DNA from: Shigella phage CM8
Reading direction: 5' to 3' (one strand)
Sequence record: MK962750
Length of the DNA stretch: 64,000 nt
A program made the translations under genes and the position numbers. The notes beneath the pieces were generated by a model that was given only the letters and a program-made list of their open reading frames with translations, had not been told where the DNA came from and made no database searches. Below, piece after piece: positions 4,514 through 41,785 of this stretch. How positions within the stretch are numbered: position 1 is the first letter of the stretch; each line of letters starts with the position of its first letter.

Positions 4514-4796
4514 TCATATCCTCAATTTGCGATCTAGTAGTCTTCCAAAGAATACTGATGAGTTCATCGTTATATGGCTGTTTTAGAATATCCCGACTTT
4601 TCTTGATAGCATATTCGTATTGAGCAAAATTATTGTTTTCAGCTGCGATCTGAGCGTGCTTATAAAGACGATTCAGTTCGCGTTTGTTTTTAGACAATAA
4701 CTTATTTGCTTTTCTTTCTGCTTCAAGACGGTTCTTTTCTTCAATAGAAGAAATAAGCTTTTCCACTTCATCATTAATTTCGGGTTTATCAGTCAT
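4479..4796 (-). CDS. Hypothetical protein
   Basis: 105-aa ORF, coiled-coil-like and charged. Confidence 0.4.
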   Translation of the reverse strand: MTDKPEINDEVEKLISSIEEKNRLEAERKANKLLSKNKRELNRLYKHAQIAAENNNFAQYEYAIKKSRDILKQPYNDELISILWKTTRSQIEDMIDAYTRKIQAS

Positions 4797-4797
4797 A

Positions 4798-5016
4798 TTA
4801 TTTCTCTAATATAAAATAAAAATCATCATCTGTTAAATGATACCTGTAATTTAATTCTACACCATTAGATTTAAAAGCGGTATCATACGGATTTTCTGGA
4901 TCAATATCAATGTCAAGAGCTAAAACTTCCCTGAGATACATTTTAAGTAAATAGGGAATAGCTTCAACTTCAGGTATTTCTTCCAAGAATCCGGAGAGGT
5001 TAATCGTTAGCCTCAT
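4798..5016 (-). CDS. Hypothetical small protein
   Basis: 72-aa ORF immediately downstream of gene 55. Confidence 0.35.
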
Positions 5017-34970: not shown

Positions 34971-35006
34971 CTTATTTCCTGTTTTAATTCGTGGTTTTAA
35001 TATACT

Positions 35007-35014
35007 TATTTATA
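35007..35014 (-). promoter_or_regulatory. Late promoter (TATAAATA) upstream of the 34970 start
   Basis: Plus-strand tatttata at 35007-35014, about 37 nt upstream of the ATG. Confidence 0.55.
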
Positions 35015-35020
35015 CTAAAA

Positions 35021-35044
35021 AGCCCCAACCTTTCGGTCGGGGCT
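35021..35044 (-). terminator. Intrinsic terminator, second copy of the agccccaacc/gtcggggct hairpin
   Basis: Same sequence as 34466-34489, followed by a T-run on the minus strand; closes the stable-RNA region. Confidence 0.55.
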
Positions 35045-35054
35045 AAGCCTTGCG

Positions 35055-35350
35055 GCAACCTTGTCGGGGTTCCACCTGCTAAGGCAAGTGTTTGTACGAA
35101 ACGCCGGGATTCGAACCCGGTTATTAAGCAGTTGACGCTACTCAATATTTTTAAAAGGCCATATCTCGACCATATCCGAACGTTCCGTCAAAAACGCTAC
35201 TCGGCTTACGGCAAAGATATTTCCTCGAATCGATAATTCGGTGCGCCGTTTCTGCTGTGATGTAAGAGGGCATCAATAAACGCAAAGATTATTAACGCAA
35301 TTCCTTACTCAGGGAACATCAGTCCGACGACTTACCGGTAGCGACCCGGT
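35055..35350 (-). ncRNA. Putative stable small RNA region, tRNA-like in part
   Basis: ~300 nt without an ORF between a terminator and a protein gene; canonical T-arm ccgggTTCGAATcccgg (reverse complement of 35103-35120) and a 7-bp acceptor-like pairing (cggaacg/cgtttcg), but the D-to-T distance is too long for a standard tRNA. Confidence 0.3.
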
Positions 35351-35353
35351 TTC

Positions 35354-35704
35354 TTAATATTCTTTTAAAGCATCAATCTGTTTACGGCGTTCACGCCATA
35401 AATCAATTGCTTCATACGCGGATTCAACATTTCGAATTGGACGGCATTTATATAAAGATTTGTGATTTTGATATTGCGTAGATAACGGAATTTTATCTAA
35501 AAGGTCTTTACGTTCAAAGTATTCGTAACCATCTAAGCCAAATGAACGATTTTTGAGAAATTGCCAATGACCAAATTCGTTTTGAATATAAATATAATCC
35601 GCATGTTGATAAAGTAAATTAATTTCACGAAATGAGATATGTTTTTCATATTCATTGAAGTAAAATGTTAAATCATGAACTACTAAATAAACATTACCTT
35701 TCAT
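35354..35704 (-). CDS. Hypothetical protein inside the RNA-gene region
   Basis: 116 aa, ATG start, aromatic-rich. Confidence 0.45.
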   Translation of the reverse strand: MKGNVYLVVHDLTFYFNEYEKHISFREINLLYQHADYIYIQNEFGHWQFLKNRSFGLDGYEYFERKDLLDKIPLSTQYQNHKSLYKCRPIRNVESAYEAIDLWRERRKQIDALKEY

Positions 35705-35722
35705 ATTTTCCTCACTTATAAT

Positions 35723-35798
35723 TGGTCGAGGCAGTAGGGATCGAACCTACGACCTAGGACTTAGAAGGTCCTTGCTCTTCCTTCTGAGCTATGCCCCG
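35723..35798 (-). tRNA. tRNA-Arg (anticodon UCU)
   Basis: 76-nt cloverleaf by hand: acceptor cggggca/tgcctcg, anticodon stem aggac/gtcct with loop cttctaa, T-arm gtagg-ttcgatc-cctac, encoded CCA. Confidence 0.8.
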
Positions 35799-35802
35799 TA
35801 AT

Positions 35803-35890
35803 TGGGGTGACCGATGGGAGTCGAACCACCCGAGTCGCAATGACAATGGATTTACAGTCCACACCGCTACCTCTACGGGATAACTCCCCT
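35803..35890 (-). tRNA. Degenerate tRNA-like element (possible remnant or atypical tRNA; anticodon-like GUA)
   Basis: Has a TTCGACT T-loop-like motif, terminal CCA and a 5-bp stem with loop ctgtaaa, but no consistent acceptor or T stem could be paired by hand. Confidence 0.25.
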
Positions 35891-35902
35891 TAATTCTTAA
35901 TT

Positions 35903-35977
35903 TGGTGGCCCTGGGTGGAATTGAACCACCATCTGGCGATTATGAGTCGCTTGCTTGAACCTTCCAGCTACAGGGCC
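35903..35977 (-). tRNA. tRNA with CAU anticodon (Ile2-type or Met)
   Basis: Acceptor ggccctg/cagggcc, anticodon loop ctcataa, T-arm ggtgg-ttcaatt-ccacc, encoded CCA. Confidence 0.7.
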
Positions 35978-35978
35978 T

Positions 35979-36054
35979 TGGTGCTGATTGACGGAATCGA
36001 ACCGCCGACCTTCTCATTACAAGTGAGTTGCTCTACCTACTGAGCTAAATCAGC
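35979..36054 (-). tRNA. tRNA-Thr (anticodon UGU)
   Basis: Acceptor gctgatt/aatcagc, anticodon loop cttgtaa, T-loop ttcgatt, encoded CCA. Confidence 0.8.
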
Positions 36055-36059
36055 AAAAC

Positions 36060-36149
36060 TGGCGGAGGCGATAGGATTTGAACCTATGAGTCGCCGGAGC
36101 GACTGCCGGTTTTCAAGACCGGTGCATTAAACCACTCTGCCACGCCTCC
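36060..36149 (-). tRNA. tRNA-Ser (anticodon UGA), class II with long variable arm
   Basis: Acceptor ggaggcg/cgcctcc, anticodon stem-loop ccggt-cttgaaa-accgg, long variable arm, T-loop ttcaaat, CCA. Confidence 0.85.
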
Positions 36150-36155
36150 AAATAT

Positions 36156-36806
36156 TTATATATTGTTAATTTGATTTAGAATTCTTTTTGCTTGAGTATG
36201 ACTTACGCCAATATGCTTAGCATATTTAGACAATTCGCCACGTTTAGAAAAATCATATAATTTAGAAATTTCTATTCTTCTTTTTCTTTCATCCGCAGAA
36301 ACTTTTGCTTCGTTTGCTTTTGCTATTTTACGTTTAGCTTCTTGAGAATGAGTTTTACCAGCAAAGCCATTCTTCATTAATCCATTTGAAGACCATCCTT
36401 TTAATTTTCCGTTAGAATGTGCCTTTTTAACACCCAATGAAATTAATTCGCGTTGCTGATCTGTCATAGGATAATTATTTATATGATCCCATCCACCTTC
36501 ACCTCCAAGTTTTAAATTATACACATCTGGTCTATTTAAAAACTCTTCTGTGACAATATTTTTCTCGGCTTCAAGCATAGATTCTTTATCGTCAAAATAC
36601 TCTAATATTTCTTTAGAAAAATTTTCTATACCATATTTATCTTGGGCTCTTTTTAATAATTTACCAGAACCCATATATCCATCATCTAAATTTTCGGTAG
36701 AATGCACACCAATATAAATTTTATTATTAATTTTATTTGTTATTTTATAAAGATAAAAATGCATATCAGTCCCTAATAAAGAACTGAGCGTCTCACGACG
36801 AGTCAT
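36156..36806 (-). CDS. segB: GIY-YIG homing endonuclease, SegB-like
   Basis: 216 aa; GIY-YIG motif YLYKITNKINNKIYIGVH...GYMGSG; inserted in the tRNA cluster; alternative start at 36764. Confidence 0.7.
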   Translation of the reverse strand: MTRRETLSSLLGTDMHFYLYKITNKINNKIYIGVHSTENLDDGYMGSGKLLKRAQDKYGIENFSKEILEYFDDKESMLEAEKNIVTEEFLNRPDVYNLKLGGEGGWDHINNYPMTDQQRELISLGVKKAHSNGKLKGWSSNGLMKNGFAGKTHSQEAKRKIAKANEAKVSADERKRRIEISKLYDFSKRGELSKYAKHIGVSHTQAKRILNQINNI

Positions 36807-36810
36807 AAAT

Positions 36811-36884
<74 letters not shown>

Positions 36885-36889
36885 AAATT

Positions 36890-36976
36890 TGGTGCGAGAA
36901 GTGGGACTCGAACCCACAAGGAAATCATTCCGCAGCATTTTAAGTGCTGTGCCTTTACCAATTTGACCATTCTCGC
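36890..36976 (-). tRNA. tRNA-Leu (anticodon UAA), class II
   Basis: Acceptor gcgagaa/ttctcgc, anticodon stem-loop cagca-cttaaaa-tgctg, long variable arm, T-arm tgggttcgagtccca, CCA. Confidence 0.8.
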
Positions 36977-36982
36977 GCTATA

Positions 36983-37591
36983 TTATTTATTACGTGAAAA
37001 AGACTGTTCTATCAATTCTGGACACTTTCGTTCTATCCATTTTCTAGCTTTTTGTGGGCTTATACCTATTATTTTAGCAGCTTTACTAACCCATCCAAAT
37101 TTAGAATAATCGATTTTAACTAATTCTTCGTAAATTTCATCAGTTAAAATCTTTTCATTAATATTTACCAGTAAATGATATAATTTATTATCATTAGCAA
37201 TTTTAATGAATCTTTTATAGTTTCCGCCTTTACTTAAACCTAATGAAGTAATTGCAGATGATATAGTAGCCGAATTTAATAGTGCGTTTAAAATTTCTTC
37301 ATCACTAACATTATAACGCTTTTTATTATTTTTAATATTTTTACCAGCAAAAGTATCAGTTTGCGAATGGCAGTTTGGACATAATAATCTTAAATTTGAT
37401 TTAAGATGATTTTTGTTATTTCCATCAATATGGTCTAATTGCAGAACAATATGCTTATTTTGCCATTTTGAAATTTTACAAATTGCACACTCATATGGAA
37501 AAATATTTTCTTTTATTATTTTGTCTTTCAGCTTTCCTGTACTAAAATTTGGATGTTTTCCTTCAAAAATTTCAGCTAATTTAGTATCCAT
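36983..37591 (-). CDS. Free-standing HNH homing endonuclease
   Basis: HNH/zinc motif CAICK...HIVLQLDHIDGNNKNHLKSNLRLLCPNCH; ATG at 37589-37591 chosen over the ORF-track TTG; C-terminal helix-turn-helix-like region. Confidence 0.7.
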   Translation of the reverse strand: MDTKLAEIFEGKHPNFSTGKLKDKIIKENIFPYECAICKISKWQNKHIVLQLDHIDGNNKNHLKSNLRLLCPNCHSQTDTFAGKNIKNNKKRYNVSDEEILNALLNSATISSAITSLGLSKGGNYKRFIKIANDNKLYHLLVNINEKILTDEIYEELVKIDYSKFGWVSKAAKIIGISPQKARKWIERKCPELIEQSFSRNK

Positions 37592-37690
37592 AATATGATT
37601 CCCAATTATTAACAAAGGCTCTCTAACAAGAACCCTTGATGATAGAGGGTATTAATCAGTGCGGTATGAGTTAATAATAACAAATAATTC

Positions 37691-38206
37691 TTAAAGCAAA
37701 TTAAACATTTTAACGGTCGGCAAAACAATTTCTTTTTCTATATAAGAGTATTTAACACTCTCAACTACACGCAAAAAATCATAATCATAATACTCAGAAG
37801 CATTACCTAAAATATTAATAAGTCCTTCAAGCACTTTATTACCATTCACAAAGAATAAGTCAAATACGCGTTCTTCGTCTTCTTCGGATTTATTACCAAG
37901 GTCAACTTCTATATCAAAGACCTTTTTAATGAATTCTGGATAAAGTTGTTCTGAGAACAGTCCTTCAACCAAGTATTCATAAATAAAAAGCGATTGCTCG
38001 CTGAACAAGCCATTACCACAATAACGTTCAGCTTTAGTACTAGAATGTCTACTTTTAAACTTCTTTAAAAGATATTGAAATTGTAAGATTTCATGCTCTT
38101 CTACGCCAAACAGTGTTTTAGTTTTATAGTTGTCACCATCATTTTCCCAGGTAGTGACATCAATTACGTAACCCTGTGGAATTGTAGTACCTAAACAAAT
38201 ATTCAT
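37691..38206 (-). CDS. Hypothetical protein
   Basis: 171-aa ORF with ATG start. Confidence 0.45.
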   Translation of the reverse strand: MNICLGTTIPQGYVIDVTTWENDGDNYKTKTLFGVEEHEILQFQYLLKKFKSRHSSTKAERYCGNGLFSEQSLFIYEYLVEGLFSEQLYPEFIKKVFDIEVDLGNKSEEDEERVFDLFFVNGNKVLEGLINILGNASEYYDYDFLRVVESVKYSYIEKEIVLPTVKMFNLL

Positions 38207-38496
38207 TTGCTCACCATATTAATGTAAGTATATTCAATACATTCAAGACCCAAAGGATTCTTGAAAATATCATATTCAAGAGGACCTTTTTCTGTTTCAA
38301 TAAAGAAATCAAAATTTACTGTATTAAATTTACGGTCTTCCTTCACTAATTTAACCTGAGAAGATGAACGGTCAATGTAAACCTTTTCAACTTCAAAACA
38401 TGTTAAAACGCCATAATCATCAATCAAGGCTTTAGCCGCGTCTTGATCATATTTATATCCATTTTCAATTGACGATACTTTAGCATAAAGAATCAT
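38203..38496 (-). CDS. Hypothetical protein
   Basis: 97-aa ORF. Confidence 0.45.
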   Translation of the reverse strand: MILYAKVSSIENGYKYDQDAAKALIDDYGVLTCFEVEKVYIDRSSSQVKLVKEDRKFNTVNFDFFIETEKGPLEYDIFKNPLGLECIEYTYINMVSK

Positions 38497-39066: not shown

Positions 39067-39127
39067 TTTATTCTCCTCAGTAGCTGATAGGGTAATAGTA
39101 TCACTACTAAAACCCAATGTAAACAAT

Positions 39128-39352: not shown

Positions 39353-39385
39353 TTTAGTTTCCATTTGAGTGTTTGTTTTGATAGG

Positions 39386-39418
39386 GTAATAGTATCACTA
39401 CTAAAACCCAATGTAAAC
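39386..39418 (-). promoter_or_regulatory. Early-promoter-like module (repeated before each gene of the internal-protein locus)
   Basis: tgtaaac at 39412-39418 and gtaatagtatcac at 39386-39398; near-identical copies near 39090-39125, 39745-39790, 40070-40120, 40360-40392, 40720-40765 and 41045-41095. Confidence 0.5.
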
Positions 39419-39436
39419 AACTTTGTGAAAAATTTA

Positions 39437-39724
39437 TTACAAAAGATTTTTAGCAATAATCTTGAGATGTGCCGCAGAAATGTGTTTAGCTTTAAACAAC
39501 GCAGTTTCTTCAGCAGGAGAGATAACGATTGTAGCACCATCCTTTTTAGCAGACCACCCATCGCCTAGGTAAACAGTACCTTTGATTTCTTCGCCATCAA
39601 CCAGACTAATCATTGGTTTACCTTCTCGTCCTTTATTTGCTTTAATAACTTCAGAAGTAAGAGTAGCTTCGGTAATAGTAGAAACCGGGGTAGTTGTAGA
39701 AGTAAATTCTTTGAAAGTTTTCAT
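39437..39724 (-). CDS. Internal (capsid-targeted) protein B, copy 1 (leader MKTFKEF)
   Basis: 95 aa, MKTFKEFTSTTTPVSTITEATLTSE...; ITE motifs fit prohead-protease sites; differs from copy 2 only in the last ~9 residues. Confidence 0.6.
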   Translation of the reverse strand: MKTFKEFTSTTTPVSTITEATLTSEVIKANKGREGKPMISLVDGEEIKGTVYLGDGWSAKKDGATIVISPAEETALFKAKHISAAHLKIIAKNLL

Positions 39725-39796
39725 TTTATTTTCCTAATTAATTTTGATAGGGTAATAGTATCACAACTAAAACCCTATGTAAACAACTTTGTGAAA

Positions 39797-40054
39797 TTAT
39801 TTTAAATCTTCTAATCGTTTCTTCATCTTAGAACCGTTCTTAGCGATTTCGCCTGCATCAGAGCATAATGCTAAAAGCGCTTTAACTTTAGTTTGGTCTC
39901 CTTTAAAAGATGAAGGATCAACAGCAGCAGCAAGTTCTTTAATACGAGAGAAAAGACGCTCAGCTTCAGCTAAAGCCATTCCAAGCTTTACTTCCATACC
40001 GCGGGAAGATTCAGTAATAGTAGTTTTTGTAGCAAACTCTTTGAAAGTTTTCAT
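39797..40054 (-). CDS. Internal (capsid-targeted) protein C, copy 1 (leader MKTFKEF)
   Basis: 85 aa, MKTFKEFATKTTITESSRGME...; identical to 40771-41028. Confidence 0.6.
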   Translation of the reverse strand: MKTFKEFATKTTITESSRGMEVKLGMALAEAERLFSRIKELAAAVDPSSFKGDQTKVKALLALCSDAGEIAKNGSKMKKRLEDLK

Positions 40055-40126
40055 TTTATTTTCCTAATTAATTTTGATGAGGTAATAGTATCACTACCTC
40101 ATCAGTATGTAAACAACTTTGTGAAA

Positions 40127-40698
<572 letters not shown>

Positions 40699-40770
40699 TT
40701 TATTTTCCTAATTAATTTTGATAGGGTAATAGTATCACAACTAAAACCCTATGTAAACAACTTTGTGAAA

Positions 40771-41028
40771 TTATTTTAAATCTTCTAATCGTTTCTTCAT
40801 CTTAGAACCGTTCTTAGCGATTTCGCCTGCATCAGAGCATAATGCTAAAAGCGCTTTAACTTTAGTTTGGTCTCCTTTAAAAGATGAAGGATCAACAGCA
40901 GCAGCAAGTTCTTTAATACGAGAGAAAAGACGCTCAGCTTCAGCTAAAGCCATTCCAAGCTTTACTTCCATACCGCGGGAAGATTCAGTAATAGTAGTTT
41001 TTGTAGCAAACTCTTTGAAAGTTTTCAT
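40771..41028 (-). CDS. Internal (capsid-targeted) protein C, copy 2
   Basis: 85 aa, identical to 39797-40054. Confidence 0.6.
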   Translation of the reverse strand: MKTFKEFATKTTITESSRGMEVKLGMALAEAERLFSRIKELAAAVDPSSFKGDQTKVKALLALCSDAGEIAKNGSKMKKRLEDLK

Positions 41029-41100
41029 TTTATTTTCCTAATTAATTTTGATGAGGTAATAGTATCACTACCTCATCAGTATGTAAACAACTTTGTGAAA

Positions 41101-41785
<685 letters not shown>

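Follow-up and report, generated by a model that had tools for sequence, protein, structure and literature searches.

HNH endonuclease genes inside phage transfer RNA (tRNA) clusters are known from T5 (F-TflI, II and IV) and from mycobacteriophages (PMC6409571). Among these, hegA/F-TflIV is an HNH endonuclease of the T5 tRNA region, according to the mentions of Akulenko et al. 2004 in PMC2330249 and PMC5714182. In T4, the endonuclease SegB recognises a motif in tRNA genes and shows nearly 100% inheritance in T4 x T2L crosses (PMC2330249), and SegB was reported in T6 to drive amplification of tRNA-Tyr and other anti-defence loci (PMC13096335). In T4-like phages, an endonuclease gene can also take a slot by replacing the resident sequence, as a passage on the replacement of mobC/mobE by SegH/Hef describes (Sandegren et al. 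2005, PMC1275590). Here we analyzed a stretch of 64,000 nucleotides (nt) from Shigella phage CM8 (sequence record MK962750), hereafter the window, in which a predicted HNH endonuclease gene at the head of the tRNA cluster has replaced tRNA-Gln. Over 3 kilobases (kb) around this locus, the sequence is 95-99% identical to hundreds of T4-like phages of Escherichia, Shigella and Yersinia, and the window belongs to a Tequatrovirus (T4-like) genome. No publication describing an HNH gene that replaces tRNA-Gln in Tequatrovirus, or mutual exclusivity between the two, was found in our literature search.

By analogy, the nearest functional counterpart of the HNH gene appears to be T4 SegB. Both are free-standing, belong to one and the same tRNA operon within a single phage genus and are present or absent among close relatives. 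Both open reading frames (ORFs) are packed against the next tRNA, so that the message would be trimmed by tRNA processing, and the acquisition of each was accompanied by the loss of a neighbouring tRNA gene. SegB differs by its GIY-YIG fold, which is unrelated to HNH, and by its location between tRNA-Arg and tRNA-Ile instead of the tRNA-Gln slot; its activity and homing have been shown experimentally, whereas those of the HNH gene are predicted. Pfam and PHROG searches with the HNH protein gave no GIY-YIG match; its likeness to SegB is functional only. Among named relatives, T5 hegA/F-TflIV is the nearest, with 34.7% identity by tblastn over residues 16-184 (84% of the length; E=5e-15), and the GenBank records label the Tequatrovirus gene “HNH endonuclease, similar to T5 TflIV”. 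The two proteins align through the HNH core and a C-terminal GW...PQK helix-turn-helix-like region, and hegA also lies within a tRNA cluster, 23 nt past tRNA-Ile2 and co-oriented with the tRNAs. It differs in belonging to Demerecviridae, in an extra N-terminal domain of about 80 amino acids (aa), in its tRNA neighbours and in showing no trace of tRNA replacement.

Other T-even endonucleases are more remote. T4 MobA-E and I-TevIII share the PF01844-type His-Me finger group with the HNH gene (PMC5714182), occur in T-even genomes and are free-standing and often driven by middle promoters (PMC2988022, PMC2790892). None of them is found in the tRNA region, T4 mobB being located between alpha-gt and alpha-gt.2. 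The possibility that mobB adjoins tRNA-Gln was rejected on the T4 reference record, where a 97-nt leader and no ORF lies upstream of tRNA-Gln; the HNH gene itself is absent from T4 according to the same record. BLAST-level similarity to the widespread Mob genes seems to be absent, although no pairwise comparison was made, because a tblastn search with the HNH protein matched only 251 phage records, compared with more than 1000 Tequatrovirus records in existence. In the SegH/Hef case an endonuclease gene replaces another endonuclease gene, whereas the HNH gene destroys the gene of a structural RNA. The HNH genes of mycobacteriophage tRNA clusters represent the same general phenomenon and have been implicated in the diversity of the tRNA repertoire (PMC6409571), in other hosts and phage families and with no specific tRNA partner described. 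The HNH gene is thus an uncharacterised addition to the known free-standing endonucleases and not a new kind of system.

The features on which the argument depends are the following.

36983..37591, minus strand: HNH endonuclease ORF of 202 aa, with ATG at 37591 and TAA at 36985-36983
37596..37604, minus strand: remnant of the tRNA-Gln 5' end, TGGGAATCA in the window and TGGGAATTA in 4 of 12 alleles carrying the gene
36977..36982, minus strand: 6-nt spacer TATAGC between the HNH stop codon and tRNA-Leu, defined by alignment
36890..36976, minus strand: tRNA-Leu(UAA), 3' neighbour of the HNH ORF, identical in phages with and without the gene

A reading of the window made from its letters and translated ORFs, hereafter the original prediction, had noted an HNH ORF ending 7 base pairs upstream of tRNA-Leu. 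The ORF is present and holds the motif quoted there, and it does abut tRNA-Leu; the gap is 6 nt and the start had to be moved. The true start is ATG 37591 and not TTG 37615, because all deposited relatives are annotated in this way and PHROG 14736, to which the ORF belongs, aligns with it end to end. The T4 cluster order stated there, with tRNA-Gln ahead of tRNA-Leu, agrees with the T4 reference record, which gives Gln-Leu-Gly-Pro-Ser-Thr-Ile. The reported lack of tRNA-Gln also holds: ARAGORN detected none in the whole 64 kb, and the Rfam tRNA model gave the same six tRNAs. In a permissive Rfam scan (E<=1) of positions 35000-38300, a single extra hit appeared, below threshold, at 35816-35887, and the surroundings of the HNH ORF gave none.

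The fate of tRNA-Gln was established by alignment. The window was first aligned with the loci of T4 and KAW1E185, which lack the gene (HNH-minus), and of Lutter, which carries it (HNH-plus). A wider alignment covered 11 further HNH-plus and 4 HNH-minus loci; the 12 HNH-plus loci are the window, L002, L003, L005-L012 and L019. HNH-plus and HNH-minus sequences are collinear and nearly identical across the leader and nt 1-9 of tRNA-Gln. Then nt 10-70 of tRNA-Gln are exchanged for the ORF with 4 nt upstream and 3 nt downstream of it. In HNH-plus loci the 9-nt remnant is followed by TATT-ATG...TAA-TAT, and the sequence rejoins at AGC-GCGAGAATGG, the closing 3 nt of the tRNA-Gln region with tRNA-Leu directly after them. 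The AGC at 36977-36979 is both the kept tRNA-Gln 3' end and the native -1 to -3 context of tRNA-Leu. Across alleles the 5' remnant reads TGGGAAT(T/C)A and the 3' remnant AGC, and the form TGGGAATTA is identical to tRNA-Gln nt 1-9. The HNH cassette is essentially a bare ORF, with no promoter of its own. The original prediction had raised the possibility that a tRNA gene was replaced or displaced by the endonuclease and had called for an alignment with T4. That alignment places the ORF in the tRNA-Gln slot with junction remnants of 9 nt and AGC, and comparison with T4, KAW1E185, PinkRuby and SH-1 likewise puts the cassette inside tRNA-Gln, so that the suggestion was borne out.

Because remnants of tRNA-Gln flank the HNH ORF, the complete tRNA-Gln came first. 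The reverse polarity, with an ancestral HNH arrangement and a later insertion of tRNA-Gln in most Tequatroviruses, could appeal to the HNH homologues found at the syntenic position in other T4-like lineages. We consider it essentially excluded: the first 9 and last 3 nt of tRNA-Gln retained in the HNH-plus allele are expected only if tRNA-Gln was there first, and in L015, the closest outgroup context, the two genes occur together and tRNA-Gln is complete. Other arrangements were also discarded. An endonuclease borne by a group I intron in a tRNA gene was rejected, as no intron or other RNA family of Rfam was found under or beside the ORF, and a tRNA that splicing could restore was rejected since only 9+3 nt of tRNA-Gln are left, meaning that tRNA-Gln was deleted and not split. 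The HNH gene is free-standing, outside any self-splicing intron or intein.

The HNH protein is predicted to be an HNH/His-Me finger endonuclease of the PF01844 type, and its nuclease activity is predicted on the same basis. A Cys4-zinc HNH domain occupies the N-terminus (approximately residues 30-90), and the C-terminal part contains two three-helix, helix-turn-helix-like modules (approximately 97-134 and 151-201). Residues C35, C38, H54, N66, C71, N73, C74 and H75 are invariant among 40 homologues, and all of them are unchanged in the 12 Tequatrovirus alleles. They carry the signature of the HNH superfamily, with the catalytic His (DH), the Asn and the terminal His/Asn on a beta-beta-alpha core and two CxxC pairs as the zinc site, and the protein has the beta-beta-alpha-metal fold that characterises the HNH/His-Me finger superfamily.

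We then examined the distribution of the gene. Among 510 records of a phage collection sharing the leader, 62 contain the full HNH gene (at least 99% identity) and 433 contain tRNA-Gln, so that about 12% of the records having the locus carry the HNH gene. In the 16 aligned Tequatrovirus loci, tRNA-Gln is absent from all 12 HNH-plus loci and present in all 4 HNH-minus loci. The HNH-plus loci span at least six species of the International Committee on Taxonomy of Viruses and differ in their backgrounds on both sides of the gene, which variously have or lack segB and an upstream 171-aa ORF and contain either tRNA-Pro or a GIY-YIG gene and either tRNA-Thr or a 160-aa ORF. KAW1E185, the nearest relative of the window at this locus, is 98-100% identical to it in each flanking segment compared except trna.3, yet has tRNA-Gln there. 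Carriers of the gene include ACG-C40, teqhad and HY03, and also phages T4_ev151/240, which are possible laboratory recombinants. The HNH ORF shows 98.0-100% nucleotide identity across HNH-plus loci, compared with 74-98% for neighbouring ORFs. All 12 alleles are intact, and the variable codons comprise 18 with synonymous changes only and 6 with amino-acid changes, none of them catalytic, a pattern indicative of purifying selection on the HNH gene.

The sequences bordering the cassette were compared column by column. No fixed difference between HNH-plus and HNH-minus loci was found in the 108-nt leader or in the 170-nt Leu-Gly block, and the flank polymorphisms are common to both classes and reshuffled as far as the junctions themselves. 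The sole fixed difference in the 108 nt upstream and the 170 nt downstream is the tRNA-Gln body. These patterns suggest that the HNH gene is a mobile cassette exchanged via very short homologous flanks. As polymorphisms are reshuffled up to the junctions, conversion tracts would be very short and the break would lie near the insertion point. Since the flanks hold no fixed differences, only the tRNA-Gln body could distinguish carrier from target DNA nearby.

The HNH protein has ~5500 homologues, a number of which were examined in other phages. The closest full-length homologues in a large protein database (68%, 58% and 58% identity) occupy the syntenic position in uncultured T4-like contigs, where they follow the gp2, gp3, gp1, 57A and 57B genes and trna.x ORFs and head the tRNA cluster. 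In one uncultured T4-like contig (L015) the homologue starts 14 nt past an intact, T4-like tRNA-Gln, and in more remote homologues the start lies 39 nt (L023/24) or 50 nt (L025) past tRNA-Gln(UUG). Other homologues adjoin Glu, Tyr, Lys, Pro or Leu tRNAs. A single-protein search of the IMG/VR database gave no matches; an alignment-based scan of it retrieved 80 loci, of which 76 remained after removal of near-duplicates. A tRNA was located within 1.5 kb in 68 of these 76 relatives, and a co-oriented tRNA within 150 nt in 49. Gln(UUG) was the 5' neighbour in 5 of 32 cases (12 of 371 tRNAs overall, binomial P=0.003) and Leu(UAA) the 3' neighbour in 8 of 32 (29 of 371 overall, binomial P=0.003), these P values being optimistic and indicative only, as the loci are phylogenetically non-independent. 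No publication on a preference of this family for Gln(UUG)/Leu(UAA) boundaries was found.

Taken together, we give a probability of about 60% to the reading of the HNH gene as a free-standing homing endonuclease gene whose target lies at the tRNA-Gln/tRNA-Leu junction. A target in conserved tRNA sequence, which the original prediction had named as a possibility, is favoured because the tRNA-Gln body is the only fixed difference nearby, because homologues reside in tRNA clusters with Gln(UUG) and Leu(UAA) enriched as neighbours and because SegB provides a precedent. The junction is a more likely target than the tRNA-Gln body, since intact tRNA-Gln adjoins the HNH gene in four distant relatives.

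Besides the non-independence of the census loci, several points weigh against this reading. An intact tRNA-Gln stands directly beside the HNH gene in L015, L023/24, L025 and L073, so in those lineages the tRNA-Gln body alone is not a sufficient target, and the loss of tRNA-Gln in Tequatrovirus may be a secondary accident instead of the basis of immunity. Family members also neighbour other tRNAs (Tyr, Glu, Ile2, Pro and Lys), and in view of these different neighbours the specificity evidently varies among HNH family members. At 17.3 bits, the Pfam HNH score of the protein lies under the gathering cutoff of 21.4; strong matches to HNH PHROGs (E=5e-124, 2.5e-29 and 1.3e-11) and a precomputed PF01844 match in several homologues compensate for this. 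No measured nuclease activity, cleavage site or preferential inheritance was found in the literature for the HNH protein or a close relative. Finally, the strong conservation of the ORF could reflect selection for a role beneficial to the phage and not recent spread.

Both the variety of tRNA neighbours and the coexistence with intact tRNA-Gln in distant relatives would fit an active homing endonuclease with its target elsewhere, at a generic tRNA motif or a distant site, for which the cluster is a permissive landing zone and tRNA-Gln was lost collaterally, through imprecise repair or later deletion. Among the free-standing endonucleases of T4, cleavage in a gene next to their own is frequent (Table 1 of PMC2988022) and MobE and SegG cut at a distance, SegB recognises a motif around T-psi-C common to many tRNA genes, and the same cluster hosts other insertions, namely a SegB-like GIY-YIG gene for tRNA-Pro and the 160-aa ORF for tRNA-Thr in Lutter and OE5505. 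We nevertheless judge it rather unlikely. A generic tRNA motif would occur six times in the carrier's own cluster, and within ~100-170 nt only the tRNA-Gln body separates HNH-plus from HNH-minus loci. The reshuffling of polymorphisms up to the junctions points to short tracts and a break close to the insertion point, and the two neighbours named a priori, Gln(UUG) and Leu(UAA), were both enriched in an independent census.

The conservation of the ORF bears on another explanation, to which we assign a still lower probability, namely that the gene is kept for its benefit to the phage, by excluding competitor markers or by promoting recombination or anti-defence amplification, its patchiness resulting from ordinary Tequatrovirus recombination. 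Strong purifying selection and very high conservation agree with it, as do the SegB-driven amplification of tRNA-Tyr and anti-defence loci (PMC13096335), a 974-base pair (bp) tandem duplication of internal-protein genes 2-3 kb upstream, and the syntenic homologues in other T4-like lineages, which suggest long residence. A generally useful gene would however hardly be restricted to ~12% of the records with the locus, and the HNH gene destroys a tRNA kept by most relatives. Benefit and homing are also compatible, as the benefit would need the same nuclease activity.

If the target does lie at the Gln/Leu junction, cleavage and homing by the HNH protein would proceed as follows. When the carrier and an HNH-minus relative infect the same cell, the enzyme would nick or cut the other genome at or near the junction, and T4 recombination-dependent repair would copy the HNH allele across, with the identical leader and the tRNA-Leu/Gly block as homology arms. 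Lacking the tRNA-Gln part of the site, the carrier genome would itself be immune, and the phage would pay by losing its own tRNA-Gln(UUG). In L015-type genomes an intact tRNA-Gln stands next to the HNH gene, which suggests two steps, an insertion at the tRNA-Gln 3' edge and a later deletion of the tRNA body in the Tequatrovirus lineage; one-step imprecise repair may instead account for both.

The expression signals of the gene would be those of the tRNA operon and of the tRNA-Gln remnant.

37674..37700, minus strand: putative T4 middle promoter, with MotA box TTTGCTTTA, 12-nt spacer and TATTAT
37605..37673, minus strand: tRNA-operon leader, common to HNH-minus phages, with an 11-bp hairpin

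The MotA box-spacer-TATTAT consensus is that of the established T4 MotA/AsiA middle promoters. The match heads the tRNA operon, is conserved in all HNH-plus and HNH-minus loci aligned and corresponds to a position annotated “promoter” in phage Lutter; the assignment is based on the T4 MotA-box consensus and this depositor's annotation, and not on a generic sigma-70 and terminator scan, which gave no useful signal. The HNH gene lies ~75 nt downstream of this promoter and would be co-transcribed with the tRNAs. The sole Shine-Dalgarno-like bases before the HNH ATG are a weak GGA in the tRNA-Gln remnant, whose acceptor-stem sequence probably supplies a weak ribosome-binding site. A leader hairpin hiding the ribosome-binding site, as in I-TevI and segB, was considered and rejected, since the leader folds no better than shuffled sequences (z=-0.78). 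Because tRNA-Leu begins 6 nt past the stop, RNase P processing would leave the HNH message almost without a 3' untranslated region (UTR), and the message would have its 3' end fixed by tRNA-Leu 5' maturation, 6 nt past the stop codon. The message would thus be made with the tRNAs, translated from the weak remnant site and trimmed by RNase P at tRNA-Leu. A similar limit on segB expression through tRNA processing has been proposed (PMC2330249).

This packing recurs in the family: among 47 census cases, 21 have an ORF end at -15 to +10 nt relative to the next tRNA. In some, the stop codon or last codons of the ORF overlap the tRNA 5' end, where RNase P would remove the stop or the 3' UTR. Such overlap may be a built-in brake on expression, by analogy with the proposal for segB. 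In the unrelated tRNA cluster of a metagenomic phage (L020/L021, 3001-4436), the HNH homologue is followed 210 nt on by a faint SegE-like GIY-YIG ORF with two tRNA-Lys genes between them, an endonuclease pairing like that of the window. In L015, a stretch of ~400 nt (4604-5010), GC-rich and apparently non-coding, lies between the HNH homologue and the next tRNA, and a 190-nt leader runs from a conserved MotA-type promoter to the first tRNA; neither matched an Rfam family at the gathering threshold.

A broader and less likely reading is that the HNH clade consists of homing endonucleases specialised on tRNA-gene boundaries, notably tRNA-Gln(UUG)/tRNA-Leu(UAA), and tracks these tRNAs across distant phages, with ORFs abutting the next tRNA so that RNase P defines or limits the message, the Tequatrovirus member having additionally deleted tRNA-Gln.

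HNH-minus Tequatroviruses possess two alleles of the tRNA-Gln(UUG) that the cassette replaces, represented by T4 (L004, 3959-4031) and PinkRuby (L013, 2501-2573). The T4-type allele (at least 95% identity) was found in 135 records and the second (80-90%, and ~89% in those listed) in 298. The alleles show 8 differences, confined to the anticodon stem, where they are compensatory, and to loop positions 32 and 38, with nearly identical flanks. These differences could have arisen by escape, either from a host anticodon nuclease or from the HNH endonuclease.

The remainder of the tRNA cluster and the adjoining genes are as follows.

36811..36884, minus strand: tRNA-Gly(UCC), detected by ARAGORN and Rfam
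36156..36806, minus strand: GIY-YIG endonuclease gene between tRNA-Gly and tRNA-Ser, likely start ATG 36764
35723..36149, minus strand: rest of the tRNA cluster past the GIY-YIG gene
36060-36149, minus strand: tRNA-Ser(UGA), ARAGORN and Rfam
35979-36054, minus strand: tRNA-Thr, ARAGORN and Rfam
35903-35977, minus strand: tRNA-Met/Ile2(CAU), ARAGORN and Rfam
35816-35887 (within 35799-35902), minus strand: Tyr/His chimeric pseudo-tRNA, 22.7 bits in Rfam for a threshold of 29
35723-35798, minus strand: tRNA-Arg(UCU), ARAGORN and Rfam
37691-38206, minus strand: 171-aa ORF of PHROG 2290 (function unassigned), directly upstream of the tRNA-operon promoter

The window phage retains 6 of up to 11 tRNAs known in relatives. 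Its GIY-YIG gene exactly replaces tRNA-Pro, with the stop codon 6 nt before tRNA-Ser, and is also found in KAW1E185 and PBM-1. The N-terminal catalytic half matches T4 SegB (83% identity at the protein level; ~99% at the DNA level over 42% of the gene) and the C-terminal half is unrelated to it. The gene resembles a domain-swapped SegB paralogue, presumably with a different target. The 160-aa ORF in the place of tRNA-Thr, between tRNA-Met/Ile2 and tRNA-Ser in Lutter (L002, 1123-1605) and OE5505 (L007, 1623-2105), has no Pfam match and may be another tRNA-displacing insertion.

In the pseudo-tRNA, the 5' part of tRNA-Tyr extends to the T-loop (…GGGTGGTTCGAC) and then continues as the 3' end of tRNA-His (TCCCATCGGTCACCCCA), with the fusion point inside the shared T-loop sequence GGTTCGAC/TCC. 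The deletion took out tRNA-Asn and a 114-nt spacer, together with the 3' end of tRNA-Tyr and the 5' part of tRNA-His. It was present in none of the 12 best-matching phage records, all of which match in two pieces spanning 405 nt. The junction falls within the T-psi-C motif reportedly recognised by SegB.

Upstream of the operon, the stop codon of the 171-aa ORF overlaps the MotA box, and the presence of this ORF among relatives varies independently of the HNH gene. The 974-bp tandem duplication lies at ~39366-41300, 2-3 kb from the HNH locus. Its repeat copies at 39366-39665 and 40340-40639 form a 300-nt pair with 97% identity, and it holds a truncated copy of the 57B 3' end (40127-40372) and two internal-protein-like genes of 85 and 95 aa. 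Seven 45-nt promoter-containing repeats (at 39085, 39379, 39745, 40075, 40353, 40719 and 41049) stand ahead of small genes and bound the duplication, which they probably mediated. The 45-nt element resembles the early-promoter stem-loop cassettes of T4-type phages. The duplication recalls the SegB-linked segmental amplification of anti-defence loci.

The replacement explains why about 1 in 8 Tequatrovirus genomes “lack” tRNA-Gln. The locus is a ready experimental system, with natural near-isogenic HNH-plus and HNH-minus phages, a predicted target of ~70 bp and two tRNA-Gln alleles. The family habit of Gln(UUG)-Leu(UAA) placement, with the stop in contact with the tRNA that follows, suggests that there is an uncharacterised class of HNH enzymes specific for tRNA genes, whose recognition rules could be read from many natural variants. 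Phage tRNAs are now viewed as counter-defence cargo against host immunity that cleaves tRNAs (PMC13096335, and citations of Azam 2024 and van den Berg 2023); one defence of this kind, retron Eco2, cuts tRNA-Gln (PMC12916289). A selfish endonuclease spreading by erasing a counter-defence tRNA would set a mobile element clearly against its phage. If the broader reading of the HNH clade is true, then, with the tRNA-Pro replacement and the Tyr/His fusion added, T4-like phages would owe their tRNA repertoire largely to conflict with resident endonucleases, and not to codon usage.

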